9,571 nt of DNA from an uncultured archaeon (GTDB lineage Archaea; Asgardarchaeota; Jordiarchaeia; Jordiarchaeales; Jordiarchaeaceae): contig CAZECW010000214.1 in the NCBI GenBank assembly GCA_964510585.1, positions 1 through 9,571 of the forward strand. The letters are read 5' to 3'. Both the position numbers and the translations under genes were made by a program. Positions 1-9,351 of this stretch are shown here, piece after piece (position 1 is the first letter of the stretch; the number at the start of each line of letters is the position of its first letter). The notes beneath the pieces were generated by a model. That model had not been told where the DNA came from. It saw only the letters and a list, made by a program, of their open reading frames with translations, and did no database searches.

Positions 1-139
1 CCCCCATGAGGGTGCCAACATAGACGCCGTTCCCTTGAGGGAAGGGCGTGTTAACTGGGTGATGGCACACCCATTGCTTCGAAGGCTCCCGATGAGCCAG
101 AAGCAAGAATCTCCCGACTTTAGTCGCGGAGAGTGTCAA
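1..139 (+). mobile_element. Right end of an IS200/IS605-family insertion sequence (probably tnpB-bearing); the element continues beyond the left edge of the window
   Basis: GAAT (107-110) lies directly before an imperfect hairpin CTCCCGAC-TTTA-GTCG(C)GGAG (111-131, one bulged C), followed by AGTG-TCAA (132-139). This is the layout of the IS608 right end (guide GAAT, bulged TTTA-loop palindrome, cleavage site TCAA). The + frame across it reads QESPDFSRGECQ, a tail common at IS605 tnpB 3' ends. Confidence 0.88.
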
Positions 140-232
140 CATCGTCCAACTGTAAAGATATCACGTCAGATCCAACAGAATCCTTCAGGTTCTTCGAATT
201 ATCTAAAGCAACAATCTTCCCAAAATCCATAA
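2..232 (+). CDS. Possible C-terminal tail of TnpB reading through the IS right end into flanking DNA (5'-partial)
   Basis: Frame is open from base 2 (PHEGANIDAVPLREGRVNWVMAHPLLRRLPMSQKQESPDFSRGECQ...) to TAA 230-232. No RuvC or Zn-finger motif is in view, and another frame ends PMRVPT* at 21-23, so the true tnpB frame cannot be fixed. Confidence 0.3.
   Translation, partial: PHEGANIDAVPLREGRVNWVMAHPLLRRLPMSQKQESPDFSRGECQHRPTVKISRQIQQNPSGSSNYLKQQSSQNP
6..159 (+). ncRNA. Putative TnpB omegaRNA (reRNA) scaffold 3' portion plus flank-derived guide; 5' end probably outside the window
   Basis: Stems seen: 6-17/63-74 (imperfect), enclosing 24-34/39-49 (ACGCC-G-TTCCC/GGGAA-G-GGCGT, loop TTGA); 74-80/100-106 (TTGCTTC/GAAGCAA) with inner 84-88/94-98 (GGCTC/GAGCC); right-end hairpin 111-131. 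Established: TnpB omegaRNAs overlap the tnpB 3' end and right end and take their guide from the flank. Expression is not shown. Confidence 0.6.
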
Positions 233-860
233 TAGCAATTCTGCTACAAAGATAATCCGCCTCCTCCAAGTAGTGAGTAGTAAGAATAATAGTAACCTCC
301 TCCTCCCGAGCCATTCTCCTAATATAATCCCAAATCCGGCGCCTAGTTTGGACATCTAAGCCCAAGGTAGGTTCATCGAGGAACAGTACGTGTGGGAAAT
401 GCATTAGTCCTCGGGCTATTTCTAGTCTCCTTTTCATTCCTCCAGAGTAGTTTATGACTAGACTTTTGGCGTGTTCAGTTAGCTCTACCAAGTCTAGGAC
501 TTCGTTTATTCTTTCTTTTCTTTTCTGTTTGGGAAGTCCGTACATTCGGGCGTGGAAGTCTAAGTTTTCCTCTCCTGTTAGCCTTATGTCTAGGCTGGGG
601 TCTTGGAAAACCATTCCGATGTTGCTTCTAACCTCATCTTTTTGTGTCTGTATGTTGTATCCCCATACTTCGGCCGTTCCGGATGTAGGCCTGATGAGTG
701 TGGCTAGCATTTTTAGGGTGGTGGTTTTACCGGCACCGTTGGGGCCGAGCATTCCGAACAGTTCCCCTTTTTCTATTTCGATGTTTAGTTTGTCCACTGC
801 GGTGAGGCCTTTGAATTTTTTAGTTAATTCATGTGTTTTGATTGCGTACATATCGTTCAT
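120..860 (-). CDS. ABC transporter ATP-binding subunit, DrrA/CcmA-like (ABC-2 exporter); C-terminally truncated by the IS insertion
   Basis: Walker A GPNGAGKT (aa 39-46), Q-loop VFQD, signature YSGGMKRR, Walker B VLFLDEPT, H-loop TTHY. The final DTLRD* is the reverse complement of the IS right end (stop TAA at 120-122 lies in the IS hairpin loop). Confidence 0.93.
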   Translation of the reverse strand: MNDMYAIKTHELTKKFKGLTAVDKLNIEIEKGELFGMLGPNGAGKTTTLKMLATLIRPTSGTAEVWGYNIQTQKDEVRSNIGMVFQDPSLDIRLTGEENLDFHARMYGLPKQKRKERINEVLDLVELTEHAKSLVINYSGGMKRRLEIARGLMHFPHVLFLDEPTLGLDVQTRRRIWDYIRRMAREEEVTIILTTHYLEEADYLCSRIAIMDFGKIVALDNSKNLKDSVGSDVISLQLDDVDTLRD

Positions 861-2410: not shown

Positions 2411-3184
2411 TTATATTATTTTTCGGGCGAAGGTCATATATCCGGTGTGTCCTATCATTCTAGTTTCAGGTCGGGTTTTGCCTTCTTCCACATTTATGTA
2501 CCTGACCAGGCATTCTAGTGTCCTCAGGTCGGCGAACTTTTCTCTCTCTAGTTCCTTTACTGTTTTCTGAACTTGGTCGATGGTTGGCGAGTACGAGGCG
2601 AAGTTACCTCCCCCTCGGAGAGCTTCGTAGGCGGCTTTAACTGCTAGCCATGGCGTGGCTATGTCCAGTATGACTGCGTCCACCTGCTCTTCCTCTATGC
2701 CCTCCAGAATGTCCTTGTTTTTGAGTTCAACATATTCAATTACTCCTGCTTTTTCCAAGTTTTTTCGCGCAATGTTTTGGAACTCCTCCCGATTCTCGTA
2801 ACTGTAAACTTTGCCACCTGGCCTAACGTAATTTGCCAAGATTATGGTCAGGGCTCCGCTTCCGGTGCCTGCCTCCACCACTCTGCTCCCCGGAACTATG
2901 CCCGTGTTTAGTAGTATGAGGCCTATGTCCTTGGGGTATATTATCTGGGTGGCTCTTTGCATCTTAAGGATTAGGTCCATGGGTGTGGGTTTGACCACGT
3001 AGAACTTGTGGTTGGTGCTGCTCATAACCGTGGTTCCATAGGGTTTTCCTATAATGTCGTTGAAGTTTACTGCGCCTTTATGGGTGTGGTGGATTTTTCC
3101 CTCCTCGGCTTTGAGGAGCCATCTTCTATTCTTATCATAAATTAATAGTATATAGTCTCCAACCTTTACGCTCATTGGGCTCAC
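2411..3184 (-). CDS. trmI: tRNA (adenine-N1)-methyltransferase, TrmI/GCD14 family (m1A57/58); real start may be ATG at 3175
   Basis: N-terminal HTHKGAVNFNDIIGKPYG, TQIIYPKD, SAM motif VVEAGTGSGALT, YSYENREEF, DAVILDIATPW, C-terminal TRPETRMIGHTGY. A GTGAG RBS-like element lies 4 nt before ATG 3175. Confidence 0.93.
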   Translation of the reverse strand: MSPMSVKVGDYILLIYDKNRRWLLKAEEGKIHHTHKGAVNFNDIIGKPYGTTVMSSTNHKFYVVKPTPMDLILKMQRATQIIYPKDIGLILLNTGIVPGSRVVEAGTGSGALTIILANYVRPGGKVYSYENREEFQNIARKNLEKAGVIEYVELKNKDILEGIEEEQVDAVILDIATPWLAVKAAYEALRGGGNFASYSPTIDQVQKTVKELEREKFADLRTLECLVRYINVEEGKTRPETRMIGHTGYMTFARKII

Positions 3185-3194
3185 TTCATTCCCT

Positions 3195-4229
3195 TTACAG
3201 GTTCGGTTTTCCTATTATTAGTATTTGGGCACCGCATCTTGAGCACTTATTTTCAGGAGTAATTCGATATTTGGTGATACTAAAAATGTATCTCTCTATA
3301 AGTAGTTCCCCACAATTAGGGCACCAAGTATTTTCACCCATGTGTCCCGGCACATTTCCAATGTAAACATATTTTAAACCTTCACTTAGTCCCACTTCTC
3401 TGGCACGTTCCAGTGTTTGGATTGGTGTGGCTTCTCGGTCAGTCATCTTGTATTCGGGATGGAACCGGGTTAGGTGCCACGGAATGTTTTCATCCTCCTC
3501 CCTTATTCTTCTGGCTATGCGTCTCAGGCAATCCACATCATCATTTACCCGCGGGATAACCAGAGTAGTTATCTCAATATGTATTCCTCTCTTCCTTGAC
3601 TCATGAATGTTGCGCCACACATAATCAACGTCTGCTCCACAGTACTTCTGAACAGTTTCTTTACATCCCTTAACATCAACATTCATAGCGTCCAAGCCGC
3701 TCTCTATGAGGAGATCCAAAGCTTGGAGAGTCATATAGCCATTGGTAACATAAGTATTGTAGTATCCCATCTTTTTTGCAAGTCTAAAAACATCTAGAGA
3801 ATACTCCAAGAGGAGAGTGGGCTCATTAAAAGATATGGAAGTCCCCTGACACTTATAGGCCTTAACGAGACGCATAAACTGCTCTGGACTCACATAATTC
3901 TTAAACTCATCTGGAGGATGCTTCGATATCTCCCAATTCTGGCACCAAGGGCATGTAAAATTACAGCTCCAGGAGCCAACGGTTAAGGCTTTTGAGCCGG
4001 GATAAAAGTGGAAAAATGGCTTCTTTTCAATGGGATTAGCACTTAGTGAGGAGATGTCGCCATAGATTAGTGTGAAGAGTTTTCCTCCAATGTTTTTTCT
4101 TGTTTTGCAAAACCCCACTTCTCCCTCTGGAATTACACACTTACGCATACAGGTAAGACACCTTATTCTTCCATCATCTGTTTTCTCGCTTAGTACTGCT
4201 TCTCTCAACTGGAAACTGTTATTTTTCAT
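3195..4229 (-). CDS. amrS: AmmeMemoRadiSam-system radical SAM enzyme (PFL-activase-like family)
   Basis: CxxxCxxC motif CNFTCPWCQNWEIS, preceded by NPIEKKPFFHFYPGS; N-terminal CLTCMRKC...GFCKTR; SFNEPT; RFHPEYKM; YVYIGNV; C-terminal CPNC...CSRC. GAGGT RBS upstream. Confidence 0.88.
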   Translation of the reverse strand: MKNNSFQLREAVLSEKTDDGRIRCLTCMRKCVIPEGEVGFCKTRKNIGGKLFTLIYGDISSLSANPIEKKPFFHFYPGSKALTVGSWSCNFTCPWCQNWEISKHPPDEFKNYVSPEQFMRLVKAYKCQGTSISFNEPTLLLEYSLDVFRLAKKMGYYNTYVTNGYMTLQALDLLIESGLDAMNVDVKGCKETVQKYCGADVDYVWRNIHESRKRGIHIEITTLVIPRVNDDVDCLRRIARRIREEDENIPWHLTRFHPEYKMTDREATPIQTLERAREVGLSEGLKYVYIGNVPGHMGENTWCPNCGELLIERYIFSITKYRITPENKCSRCGAQILIIGKPNL

Positions 4230-5133: not shown

Positions 5134-6489
5134 TTACCAAATCACTTCTTTGGGGGAGGCTCTGGCAAAGCTCCAGATAAAAACAAGGAACCAAAGTAAT
5201 ACAGTTACAGCCACGGCAGAGGTCATTATTATGCTGTTTGTTTGTATAAGGTACCATATTTGAAATGTTAGGTTAAGGTAGATTGTGTTTCCCGTGTCTA
5301 TGAAGAAGTATACCAGTACTTTGGGAATTTCATGAATGGGAATGTATAAGTTTGACCAGTAATGATACGGAACCCACTTTATTACCAAATCTAGCAGGGT
5401 ATAAAGGTATAGTGATAAGTATTTTGGTATTGTGGCTAGTTGGATTATGAATTTGCCTGTGAAATAATCTACTCCCAGAAAGGATCCCGCGAATATGAAG
5501 CCCACCAGCGAAGGGTTGAACCCAGTTCCTCTTTGAACCCCCTTAACTAGACAAACCAAAGTCACGAAACCTATTATTCCGAGGCAAGCATAATTAATAT
5601 AGTTGAAAAGGAGCTCTGGATCTCCTCCCCAAGTGACATAGCCTGAGGGACTCAAGCCTGGAAAATAGATGTAGGGAACAGTCAGGTACGCTAAAATTAG
5701 GAAAACGATGAACTCAAAAATTGCGAGTAACCTGTAAGGCACCTCGGTCATTTTTATACCATATGTTTGCGCTTCGAATTCTCCTGCTCCCGCAAATATT
5801 AGCCAGATTATGGAGCCAATTGCTAACGCGTCAACTATGCACATTGAGACCACGTACACCATAATCATGGTGTTTGTCCATATGCCCCAAATCCAATTCG
5901 CCAGAAGGGCGAAGATTTGTTCACGGTAAAAAATATATGCGGCGTAGGCAGGCAGAGGGCAAATCATAAGCACCAGGAGAGCTCCATAAGCTATGCGGAT
6001 GTCTCTGCTCGCCTTCCAAACCCATTCACTCCTAGTTATGATTCTACCCGCAAGGATAATTCCTGCAAAGACGCTTAGAATAGGCGAAATTGTGGGAAGA
6101 ACAAAAAACAGGATAACTATTAGGGCGTTGAAACCATAGAAAATCCGGTAGCGGAGGGGAATAATTGTAGAACTGCTATTCATTATGGAAAAGGTGTTGG
6201 CAAGCCTTGTCCTATTTATAACTATGAACAAGAGCCAAGGAAGAGAGAAAAAGATTGGGACAACCACATAATTCATAAGATAATCAGTACGATTAAAAAC
6301 TTGAAAAGCTTGAATAAAAAATTGATACACAGGAACATTAGCCAGGAACGGGTCTATGGGGAAGGGATACTGGTAAATTTTGTAGGGCGAGATAGCAAAA
6401 AGAAAGGCAAAGTATACTGGCAAACCTAAGGCGCAGATAACAACCAGCAACCTAACGGCTAAAACGCCACCAATCCTTCTACTCACCAC
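5134..6489 (-). CDS. Polytopic integral membrane protein of unknown function (about 10-12 hydrophobic segments)
   Basis: 451-aa ORF dominated by long hydrophobic runs; GTG start with GGAGG (6499-6495) 5 nt upstream; no recognised family motif. Confidence 0.8.
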   Translation of the reverse strand: MVSRRIGGVLAVRLLVVICALGLPVYFAFLFAISPYKIYQYPFPIDPFLANVPVYQFFIQAFQVFNRTDYLMNYVVVPIFFSLPWLLFIVINRTRLANTFSIMNSSSTIIPLRYRIFYGFNALIVILFFVLPTISPILSVFAGIILAGRIITRSEWVWKASRDIRIAYGALLVLMICPLPAYAAYIFYREQIFALLANWIWGIWTNTMIMVYVVSMCIVDALAIGSIIWLIFAGAGEFEAQTYGIKMTEVPYRLLAIFEFIVFLILAYLTVPYIYFPGLSPSGYVTWGGDPELLFNYINYACLGIIGFVTLVCLVKGVQRGTGFNPSLVGFIFAGSFLGVDYFTGKFIIQLATIPKYLSLYLYTLLDLVIKWVPYHYWSNLYIPIHEIPKVLVYFFIDTGNTIYLNLTFQIWYLIQTNSIIMTSAVAVTVLLWFLVFIWSFARASPKEVIW

Positions 6490-6670: not shown

Positions 6671-7198
6671 CTATTTTGGCTTTAGCACGAATTCCCATTC
6701 ACACCAAATTTTTTCGCTATGCTTATCTGGGGGGCATACGATACAGTTCACTTCTATTTCCGGATTGAAAGCTTTGGCAAACTCCTTGAGGTAGGCCCAT
6801 CTAACCTTTTTGCAGGGAAATTCACTTAGACCCTTCCTAGCTCTGGCCTTTTGGGTGCGGCAACTGGTGACCCTAAACACCGCTTGGTCTGAGGAAACTT
6901 GCCACTCCTTCGCCTCTTGGTACAAAGCCCAGCTAGTAGCCCTCAAAGCCTTAATAAAGGACTCTAAATCCCTACTTTTCAGCTCTAAAAGTTCGGACAA
7001 GTCTCTGGCCTCCATCTTGGCTAAACTACTCCAACAGTTTCTATCTATGTTCGTAGCGGCGTCGGTACCAAAACTTTCCTCTATTCCCAGAAAATAGAGT
7101 CCGTCCACTCTCCAAATGTTACTTATTTGCAGAGAAAGAAGATTAACAAGCTTTTCTTTGGGTAGACTTTGCAACCAAACTGCATCCTCGTCATTCAT
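6671..7198 (-). CDS. DUF6125-like protein (Cys-containing; probably V4R/ATC-hydrolase-like superfamily)
   Basis: IWRVDGLYFLGIEESFGTDAATNIDRNCW and CRTQKARARKGLSEFPCK...CIVCPPD...WCEWEF match the family pattern as recalled. GGTGAG RBS 5 nt before ATG 7198. Confidence 0.72.
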   Translation of the reverse strand: MNDEDAVWLQSLPKEKLVNLLSLQISNIWRVDGLYFLGIEESFGTDAATNIDRNCWSSLAKMEARDLSELLELKSRDLESFIKALRATSWALYQEAKEWQVSSDQAVFRVTSCRTQKARARKGLSEFPCKKVRWAYLKEFAKAFNPEIEVNCIVCPPDKHSEKIWCEWEFVLKPK

Positions 7199-7993: not shown

Positions 7994-8773
7994 ATGTCGC
8001 TTTTTAGAGAAAAGCTTGAAAAATGTGCTAGGGAGAAGGAGAGCCGTGTGATTCTAGCTCTTGACCTATCCTTGCCGGTTGGAGAGAAAGACTTTAAGAA
8101 GAAACTTTTGAAGAAGGCACGTTGGGTTTTGAGTGAGGTTAGTGAGTATGTTGCAGGTATTAAGGTAAACTTTCAGTTGTTGCTTCCCCTGGGACTTTTT
8201 GATGGCCTTCAATTGCTGATTAGGGATGCTTCTGGTTATGGTCTTCCGCTCATTGCAGATTTTAAGCTTAACGATGTTGAGCATACCAATGAGTGGGCTT
8301 CCCGCCACTTCTTCGATGCGGGTTTTGATGCTCTAATTGCCAATCCCTTTGTGGGTTGGAAAGGAGGTCTAGAAACAGTTTTTGGTGTGGCCAAGAAGTC
8401 GGAGAGGGGTGTTATCCTCTTAGTGTATATGTCTCATCCGGGCGCCAATGAGGGCTATGGCCAGAGAGTAGTTGGAGAGGATGGAACCATAAGCTTCCAA
8501 TACGAGGTTTTTGCTGAGAGAGCTAAATCTTGGGGAGCTGACGGAGTTGTAGTTGGCGCAACACAGCCCAAAATGGTTGAGAGGGTTTACCAAATCGTTG
8601 GGAGAAAAATTCCCATATTTAGCCCGGGCATTGGCATCCAGGGAGGCGTAATCAGCGAGGCTTTCAGAGCAGGCACCACCTACGCGATTGTGGGGCGCTC
8701 AATATATGAGTCAGAAGATCCCCGAAAAGCTGCAGTGGAGATAAAGGAAAAAATCAATGAAGTAGTAAAATAA
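7994..8773 (+). CDS. pyrF: Orotidine-5'-phosphate decarboxylase
   Basis: VILALD, GIKVN, catalytic DFKLND (DxKxxD), DGVVVGAT, PGIGIQGG, IVGRSIY. GGTGG RBS at 7983-7987. Confidence 0.95.
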   Translation: MSLFREKLEKCAREKESRVILALDLSLPVGEKDFKKKLLKKARWVLSEVSEYVAGIKVNFQLLLPLGLFDGLQLLIRDASGYGLPLIADFKLNDVEHTNEWASRHFFDAGFDALIANPFVGWKGGLETVFGVAKKSERGVILLVYMSHPGANEGYGQRVVGEDGTISFQYEVFAERAKSWGADGVVVGATQPKMVERVYQIVGRKIPIFSPGIGIQGGVISEAFRAGTTYAIVGRSIYESEDPRKAAVEIKEKINEVVK

Positions 8774-8826: not shown

Positions 8827-9351
8827 TTATTTATTTTGTTGGGTGGCTGGTTTTTTTATGGTTTTTATTATTTCTTCGAGTTTCTGGAGAAGTTCTGGAT
8901 AAACTTTTTTGTAGTCTTCTAGTTCCTGTCCTGTTTCTTCCACGAAGTTGATGAATTCCCTTATGGCCTTAATCTTTTTGTCAAAATTTATTGCCAGTTC
9001 GTTTTCCCGCCTTATCAGTGTTTCCATGTCTATCAGTCCTTCGAGGGCGTTTCTGAGGTAAAAGAAGGTTTCCTCCGCGTTGGTGGCAGTAATGGCTTGT
9101 TTAACCCAGAATAGGTGGGAAAAAAACTCGTTAATGGCCCTCTTTCTTAATTCTAGGTACTCAATTATTCTCTGAACATACATACGGGTGTCCTCTGCCA
9201 TTTCCAAGTATTTTTCGGCGTGTTCCCTGATAGCTTCTGCCGACTCTATCTCCCCGTTGAATCTTTTTCTTATCTCGTCGGTTAGCCTTTGACACAATTC
9301 CAAGTACTCTTGAACCTGCTTCTTTTGCGCTTCCTCCAATTTACTTCCCAA
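8827..9351 (-). CDS. Hypothetical all-alpha / coiled-coil protein
   Basis: 174-aa ORF, E/K/L/I-rich with amphipathic helical pattern and almost no Pro/Gly; TTG start after GCTGAT-AGGT. Confidence 0.75.
   Translation of the reverse strand: MGSKLEEAQKKQVQEYLELCQRLTDEIRKRFNGEIESAEAIREHAEKYLEMAEDTRMYVQRIIEYLELRKRAINEFFSHLFWVKQAITATNAEETFFYLRNALEGLIDMETLIRRENELAINFDKKIKAIREFINFVEETGQELEDYKKVYPELLQKLEEIIKTIKKPATQQNK

Follow-up and report, generated by a model that had tools for sequence, protein, structure and literature searches.

The window, i.e., the whole stretch of 9,571 nucleotides analysed here, starts at base 1 of contig C214, in a genome assembled into 217 contigs. The neighbouring genes of this window are ordinary and encode a TrmI/GCD14 tRNA methyltransferase, a radical SAM protein, a DUF6125 protein and an OMP decarboxylase (Table 1). 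Three other sizeable frames have no Pfam match (positions 5134-6489 on the minus strand, 451 aa; 1517-2332 on the plus strand, 271 aa; and 8827-9351 on the minus strand, 174 aa). At the left extremity, a minus-strand frame encoding an ABC-transporter ATPase runs into a segment of 139 nucleotides that starts at the first base of the contig and carries several hairpins. The host is probably an Asgard archaeon, as initially proposed, a reasonable reading considering that it encodes a full ESCRT-II EAP30 domain (70 bits, above the Pfam cut-off), which among prokaryotes is typical of Asgard archaea, and that a Jordarchaeia MAG encodes a relative of its TnpB protein (see below). A search for profilin, another Asgard marker, gave no match in the genome and was uninformative, since the control genomes likewise gave none.

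Table 1. Features of the window and of its first 139 nucleotides, with the evidence for each of them.
Feature	Position	Strand	Evidence or remark
Mini-transposon, right part (element positions 137-275)	1..139	+	29 full internal copies and 40-51 contig-end halves, median 98% identity to consensus
tnpB relic, last ~46 codons	2..139	+	BLASTP to TnpB C-termini; open frame into flank to 232
Scaffold hairpin H1	24..49	+	MFE; both-side pair changes between subfamilies, register uncertain, 65% of cells paired
Scaffold hairpin H2, near-invariant loop with TGGCA	56..73	+	Compensatory UA<->GC (7/7) and GC<->CG (7/6; 11/10 in 24 relatives)
Predicted pseudoknot, 5' strand UGGCAC	63..68	+	Pairs with 133-138; RNAalifold, 24 related right ends
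Scaffold stem H3 (base 75-80 with 100-105)	75..105	+	Base common to longer TnpB-linked scaffolds, 98% paired in 24 relatives
GAAT immediately before hairpin, where IS608 has its right guide tetranucleotide (G_R)	107..110	+	Read directly; near-invariant in relatives; role inferred from IS608
Right-end subterminal imperfect hairpin H4 (putative TnpA site as ssDNA; last RNA stem)	110..132	+	Fold and alignments
Predicted pseudoknot, 3' strand GUGUCA	133..138	+	Adjoins guide position
TCAA, right cleavage site and last four element bases	136..139	+	Copies lose similarity beyond; empty site joins TTAC to 140
Flank in would-be guide position, begins CATCGTCCAACTG	140..159	+	By position only; same 20 bases after TTAC at G009 empty site
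ABC-transporter ATPase gene cut by insertion	120..860	-	Pfam ABC_tran; 246 codons
TrmI/GCD14 tRNA methyltransferase	2411-3184
Radical SAM protein	3195-4229
DUF6125	6671-7198
OMP decarboxylase	7994-8773

The initial annotation had described, near the end of the 139-nt segment, a succession of GAAT, a bulged hairpin with a TTTA loop, AGTG and TCAA, and reading positions 107 to 139 base by base recovered exactly this arrangement. The two arms of the hairpin (CTCCCGAC at 111-118 and GTCGCGGAG at 123-131) enclose the loop TTTA (119-122), with a single bulged C at position 127 and an additional T110-A132 pair, and AGTG occupies positions 132-135. In IS608, the right guide tetranucleotide G_R is also GAAT.

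A search of the genome with the 139 nucleotides as query led to 40 matches with 98-100% identity, most of them corresponding to the first or last 138-141 nt of contigs. In the copies located inside contigs, the similarity ends exactly after TCAA (window position 139) and extends for another 136 nt to the left. The resulting 275-bp consensus contains no gene, only the frame of the tnpB relic, and has both ends of the element. A second search with this full consensus detected 75 left ends and 66 right ends with readable flanks, hence at least 75 insertion sites. The genome contains 29 complete internal copies and contig-end halves (40 right and 51 left), and the median identity to the consensus is 98%. 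Other copies ending at position 139, which had been proposed as a check, are thus present, about 75 of them in 3.8 Mb, and share the same TCAA end. The same 138-141 nt are found at the extremities of dozens of contigs, so that the first base of the window is a contig break and not a biological limit, as produced by a k-mer assembler stopping at repeats. The element therefore explains the stopping point of contig C214 and of dozens of other contigs, contributes about 20 kb of repeat, and is responsible for much of the fragmentation of the assembly.

The first 139 nucleotides of the window are the right-hand half of a 275-bp gene-less derivative of the IS200/IS605 type (a PATE or MITE) that carries a TnpB guide-RNA scaffold. 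The name PATE (palindrome-associated transposable element) comes from haloarchaeal elements. The best overall explanation of the locus, to which we assign a probability of roughly 0.85, is that an IS608-like insertion sequence of the IS200/IS605 family gave rise to a protein-free derivative, one copy of which has its right end here.

The tetranucleotide TTAC is present directly 5' of the left end in 73 of the 75 readable left flanks. The left end then starts with 18 nt ending in AAAG, followed by a hairpin nearly identical to the one of the right end and in the same orientation (arms CCCCCGAC and GTCGTGGGG on the left), whereas the right end is composed of GAAT, the hairpin and 8 nt ending in TCAA. 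Both extremities of the element thus have subterminal imperfect hairpins in place of terminal inverted repeats. Among the 66 readable right flanks, the first base after TCAA is A in 40 and G in a single one, a bias that goes beyond the TTAC target motif.

The sequence located to the right of position 139 is 91-92% identical to loci present in three congeners and 87% identical to a locus in a fourth one. In these four congeners, the homology runs leftward without interruption through the insertion point, which corresponds to an empty site. This site reads CCTTAC|CATCG in the congener G009, and the bases preceding the insertion point are CCCTAC, ACCTAC and CCTCAC in the other three; (C/T)(T/C)AC is therefore directly followed by the equivalent of window base 140 in the empty sites, and TTAC is present once in the filled site. 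The left half of the window's copy was found on contig C166, which ends with half of the split ABC-transporter gene, CCTTAC and then 55 nt of the MITE left end, with AAAG and a hairpin resembling that of the right end. A left end, which according to the initial annotation should be looked for upstream, is thus present on another contig; the interval between C166 and C214 is absent from the assembly and the middle of the window's own copy is deduced from its two ends. Together, the left flank on C166 and the empty sites of the congeners place TTAC outside and TCAA inside the element, without any duplication of the target site, and these are hallmarks of the IS200/IS605 family. The locus therefore gives proof of both boundaries of the element from an empty site.

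The same comparison clarifies the status of the ABC-transporter gene. Its intact orthologue in G009 is a protein of 334 aa with a DrrA1-3_C domain at residues 223-308, and when C166 is joined to window base 140, a protein of about 335 aa similar to this orthologue is recovered, indicating that the 246-codon frame is a truncated gene and not a short native gene. The insertion falls inside the C-terminal DrrA1-3_C domain of this DrrA-like ATPase, which it splits, and the element contributes the last six codons (VDTLRD) of the remaining frame as well as its stop codon, located at positions 120-122 in the loop of the hairpin.

The position of this stop codon in a hairpin loop, in a stretch situated at a contig end, could suggest that the structure belongs to the host, as the terminator of the ABC ATPase gene or a regulatory hairpin at its 3' end, or that it results from an artefact of the assembly. 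We consider such a reading practically untenable: the orthologues in the four congeners extend for about 90 codons through the insertion point and lack the sequence, and the 139 nt are not restricted to this locus, being found at about 75 unrelated sites as well as in six metagenome data sets. The empty sites and the unrelated insertion sites refute both the terminator and the assembly chimera. Readings as a CRISPR repeat or as a tRNA-derived element were also rejected; tRNA and tmRNA searches of the window found none, and Rfam gave no family at gathering scores for the window, nor at E <= 1 for the full copy.

On C166, the 55 nt of MITE sequence are followed by 140 nt that do not belong to the MITE (C166:8033-8172). 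The same 140 nt are present at four other contig ends (C120, C126, C156 and C192), next to unrelated flanks, which indicates that a different element with inverted repeats has inserted into the window's copy. The partner terminus of this second repeat, an imperfect inverted copy, is present at four contig ends (C7, C55, C81 and C169). The second repeat thus has imperfect terminal inverted repeats, its two termini starting with GACTTTTTCGGGCTTAGCG and GACATTTTCGGGCTTAGCG; its interior is absent from the assembly, and a derivative of about 380 bp is located inside a contig (C122:7254-7634). The nested element lies 55 nt from the left end of the window's copy, just upstream of the TATA-like region, and was inserted later than the MITE.

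The initial annotation proposed two alternatives for the sequence lying just left of the window, a non-autonomous MITE derivative or the gene of an RNA-guided nuclease, and only the former holds. The MITE-specific scaffold is always preceded by MITE sequence, and never by tnpB, in all copies that can be read through, i.e., in the internal copies of the genome and in the copies found in 23 metagenome stretches. It could be argued that only 139 nt of the repeat are present on the contig, so that nothing further left can be read directly, and that the left half on C166 departs from the MITE sequence after 55 nt. A full-length tnpB or tnpA-tnpB insertion sequence, with a nuclease gene to the left of the first base, is nevertheless very unlikely, since MITE copies match the 139 nt at 100% identity, including in the short H3 stem specific for the MITE, and this short H3 is preceded by MITE sequence in 29 of the 29 internal copies and in every metagenome contig reaching further left. 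Moreover, the right ends linked to TnpB in this genome are only 77% similar to the window, or resemble it over the last 41 nt alone. The left end found on C166 is that of a MITE, and it is followed by the terminus of the nested inverted-repeat element.

The element can be related to insertion sequences of the same genome. Pfam profiles detected Y1_Tnp transposases at four loci. One of these TnpA proteins (P0002, 129 aa) has the HUH motif at residue 60 and the motif SYLFST, with the catalytic tyrosine, at residue 105; its best relative among solved structures is the ISHp608 transposase (E-value of 1.6e-28). On at least nine contig ends, the tnpA genes follow left ends that are located after TTAC and are 90-98% identical to the first 55-60 nt of the MITE, and tnpB comes after tnpA in these IS copies. 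Over its first ~100 nt, the MITE can be aligned with the IS left end, followed by the sequence preceding tnpA, in which two TATA-like boxes are read (MITE positions ~56-63 and ~74-81), and by a decayed start of tnpA. On the other side, positions 2-139 of the window align in frame with residues 377-424 of the TnpB protein P0001 encoded by contig C81 (BLASTP E-value of 1e-7) and with a TnpB fragment encoded by C8 (4e-6), so that the tnpB remnant that had been anticipated is present as a relic of the TnpB C-terminus within the window itself. At the nucleotide level, the tnpB 3' end and right end present on C8, C45, C54 and C152 (hereafter the C8 type) are 77% similar to window positions 43-139 (97 nt), and the right end of C81 is 93% similar to the last 41 nt of the window. 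As judged from these alignments, the MITE is composed of a left end, the putative promoter region of tnpA, the last ~45 codons of tnpB and a right end. The tnpB 3' end and the right end are the place where omegaRNAs of TnpB proteins are encoded, and the guide region has thus been kept.

The parental insertion sequence is present in pieces in the genome bin, some of them with the left end, tnpA and the 5' part of tnpB (C169, C7, C162 and others) and some with the 3' part of tnpB and the right end (the C8 type). This gene is split over contig ends, and the bin lacks the middle of the tnpB of C169/C8 type. A single related tnpB is complete, that of P0001 (424 aa; C81:5072-6787, minus strand; loci L012/L017), a protein with OrfB_IS605 and Cas12f1-like_TNB (Zn ribbon) domains, both above the Pfam cut-off. 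Its frame has no stop codon inside the element and runs through the right end, a TGA being the first flank triplet after TCAA; the tnpA located upstream is degenerate, having lost the HUH motif, and belongs to the same open frame. P0001 has an Asp in MDLGV (182-186), CPFC at 329, CGKC at 346 and an Asp in NADAV (354-358), and the RuvC-II position reads LGRLRG, with Gly instead of Glu, next to a RuvC-III motif of the NADxx type. Clades with a rearranged RuvC domain have been catalogued, in which such sites are compensated by another Glu (Altae-Tran 2023, PMC10691335), and the active-site pattern predicted for P0001 would fit these clades.

A search for a tnpB gene associated with the scaffold of the MITE itself, with its short H3, found none in the genome, nor upstream of the copies in the 23 metagenome stretches. 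The nearest TnpB-linked scaffolds are those of the C8 type, 77% alike, and of the C81 type, whose resemblance to the MITE is limited to the last 41 nt and to the helix bases. The suggestion that the locus could belong to an uncharacterised TnpB clade specific for Asgard archaea is not supported: relatives of P0001 that are 67-83% identical to it are encoded in MAGs assigned to Bathyarchaeia, Nitrososphaeria, Methanomethylicia, Archaeoglobales, Thermoprotei and other groups, and the relative from the Jordarchaeia MAG is 54% identical. Judging from these homologues, putative TnpBs of this kind have a wide distribution among thermophilic archaea. At the right end, the last ~35 nt (AAGAAT, the hairpin and AGTGTCAA) differ very little between archaeal phyla of hot environments (loci L049-L076), and nearly all located right ends of the relatives of P0001 close with almost the same 35 nt. 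Such a nearly identical end next to TnpB proteins that are 67-83% identical points to a wide horizontal spread of a single IS family.

The RNA corresponding to positions 1-139 has a predicted folding energy of -61.9 kcal/mol, compared to -42.2 +/- 3.8 for 200 dinucleotide shuffles, none of which folds as well (z of -5.13); the opposite strand folds about as well, as expected of hairpin-rich DNA. The four stems reported initially within these 139 nt were recovered in the fold (H1 to H4 in Table 1). The minimum free energy structure of the single sequence places H2 in a long-range stem, whereas the alignments back a local hairpin. The tip of H3 corresponds to a short version specific for the MITE, much shorter than in the C81-type scaffold.

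Covariation in the stems, whose absence would have weakened the proposal, was looked for in related elements from several archaeal phyla, and compensatory changes were found in both alignments used. In the first one, comprising the window and 14 diverged right ends from the genome and from relatives, the four helices are 82.5% paired, versus 37-57% with slid partners, and 12 pairs are changed on both sides; RNAalifold alone recovered H2, H4 and part of H1. In the second one, comprising 24 related right ends, H2, the base of H3, H4 and the pseudoknot are 96.3% paired, with eight pairs changed on both sides, none of 500 shuffles reaching such a high value and slid controls being 35-50% paired. 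The predicted pseudoknot between the loop of H2 and the six bases preceding the final A is 98.6% paired and near invariant, with one compensatory change (AU to GC). In the relatives, 95-97% of the cells of H4 are paired and three pairs are changed on both sides. H2 and H4 are the best supported helices, H4 being also explained by the DNA hairpin. Since TnpA also requires H4, GAAT and TCAA at the DNA level, specific arguments for an RNA come solely from H1-H3 and the pseudoknot. Within the MITE copies, 1.06% of paired positions differ from the consensus versus 2.0% of unpaired ones, a weak difference that is not independent of phylogeny. The uniformity of these copies says little about selection, since all of them descend from one recent progenitor.

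These data suggest a possible life cycle for the element. The Y1 HUH TnpA of a related autonomous IS would move the MITE in trans, as single-stranded DNA. The former tnpA promoter would drive the synthesis of an RNA of roughly 170-190 nt ending in the flank, whose scaffold, formed by H1-H4 and the loop-to-tail pseudoknot, would be bound by a TnpB produced from another locus. Cutting of the vacant site (TTAC followed by CATCGTCC...) could then be guided by the first ~16-20 bases of the flank, and such cutting would favour the retention of the copy through repair from the filled allele. We consider it about an even bet that a guide-RNA mechanism of this kind operates in the MITE. More tentatively, the ~75 copies might form a mobile library of stand-alone guide RNAs with a retained tnpA promoter, relying on TnpB in trans for their own retention, or be used by the host for regulation, a scenario that we regard as rather unlikely on present evidence.

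Alternatively, the element would be the same and its RNA scaffold an inert relic, the MITE being solely a substrate of TnpA with no functional guide RNA. We give this possibility somewhat less than even chances. The 3' part derived from tnpB could be present merely because of the endpoint of the founding deletion, and its retention needs no selection if all copies derive from one recent founder, as suggested by their median identity of 98%. The lack of a cognate TnpB with the exact scaffold in the genome or in the 23 metagenome stretches and the heavy shortening of H3 compared to TnpB-linked scaffolds point in the same direction. Yet TnpA needs only the hairpin, G_R and C_R, and about 130 nt have been kept; in IS608, about 45 nt of the right end sufficed for complex formation (PMC3201880). 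Every helix and both strands of the pseudoknot are intact in the MITE, and a TATA-like region, read in the sequence only, is kept upstream of the scaffold. Furthermore, congener MITE families derived from a C8-type scaffold, and not from the MITE of the window, have also kept the scaffold from H1 to the end, as seen in G008. Gene-less elements of about 205-260 bp with similar left ends and a C8-type scaffold are present in G008 (L031, L033, L035 and L039) and in G009 (L036 and L038).

A scan of the full copy for promoters and terminators found nothing; its patterns, those of bacterial sigma-70 promoters and intrinsic terminators, are uninformative for an archaeon. Three public runs labelled as RNA matched only 5-6% of the sampled words, and their contigs, which are 90-99% alike when compared to the complete copy L040, are sequences of relatives. 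On L040, these contigs cover C81-type right ends of relatives and the left flank of a relative, not the MITE, and give no evidence either way on transcription. One contig of a relative follows the left flank up to L040 position 301 and then diverges, its continuation being unlike the right flank and providing no clean empty site.

Among 11 genomes of its class, the high-copy 275-bp family is present only in the genome of its own species. An exact search with the 29 nt of the specific short H3 detected the MITE in 23 metagenome stretches (JGI contigs, loci L080-L102) from six Ga data sets, where the copies are again mostly located at contig ends, suggesting that the organism or a close relative has been sampled repeatedly. 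The window's own flank is present in none of these 23 stretches, and viral contigs gave no match to the MITE-specific H3.

The element is thus a gene-less derivative that has retained a compact TnpB guide scaffold of about 130 nt. If the RNA is made and used, it would provide a naturally trimmed omegaRNA together with a thermophilic TnpB family (TAM TTAC) for testing, and would extend the use of TnpB in trans by non-autonomous elements outside of bacteria, a principle that is already published. If the guide library proves true, it would be the first demonstration of a system of this kind in an Asgard archaeon, based on a minimised scaffold variant not carried by any sequenced tnpB.

The ends of the element can be compared to those of IS608 from Helicobacter pylori, a member of the IS605 group, in which TTAC precedes the left hairpin by 19 nt, TCAA follows the right hairpin by 10 nt, and the left guide tetranucleotide G_L is AAAG (PMC3201880). 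Both elements insert 3' of TTAC without duplication, close with TCAA at the right end, and have a tetranucleotide immediately preceding each hairpin, AAAG on the left and GAAT on the right. They differ in the spacing on the left (19 nt in IS608 versus 18 nt here) and on the right (10 versus 8 nt), in their hairpin sequences, which are unrelated, and by the loss of both genes in the element described here. The latter therefore represents a clean archaeal case of an IS608-type element that obeys the TTAC/AAAG and TCAA/GAAT rule established in Helicobacter.

The putative omegaRNA can be compared to that of the ISDra2 TnpB of Deinococcus radiodurans (Karvelis 2021, PMC8612924; Nakagawa 2023, PMC10097598). 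In both cases, the region encoding the RNA includes the 3' end of tnpB and the right end, and several stems are present or predicted. As in ISDra2, the guide would correspond to the flank located just past the transposon end and the TAM to the target motif of the transposon, an assignment made here by position. In ISDra2, bases located just 5' of the guide (-5 to -3) form a pseudoknot with bases -105 to -103 (PMC10097598), and the one predicted here would involve bases -7 to -2 and -77 to -72. Unlike these common features, the two RNAs share no sequence similarity, and the scaffold has no Rfam match. The related TnpB also differs from that of ISDra2 by the Gly replacing the RuvC-II Glu and by its NADxx RuvC-III motif, and belongs to a family known from sequence alone.

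Finally, PATEs encoding omegaRNAs have already been described in Geobacillus stearothermophilus (Meers 2023, PMC10055086). As in the element analysed here, they contain no protein gene, have both IS200/IS605 ends, are present in many copies, are expected to be mobilised in trans and have kept the TnpB guide-RNA region; with this region kept and no TnpB gene in a PATE, TnpB would also have to act in trans. In contrast to the Geobacillus PATEs, the present element is found in a hot-spring, probably Asgard, archaeon, with about 75 copies in 3.8 Mb, has kept the former upstream region of tnpA as a possible promoter, and carries a scaffold variant without a matching TnpB gene in the data searched. 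It is a high-copy archaeal member of an already published kind of element, the omegaRNA-bearing PATEs, with ends similar to those of IS608.
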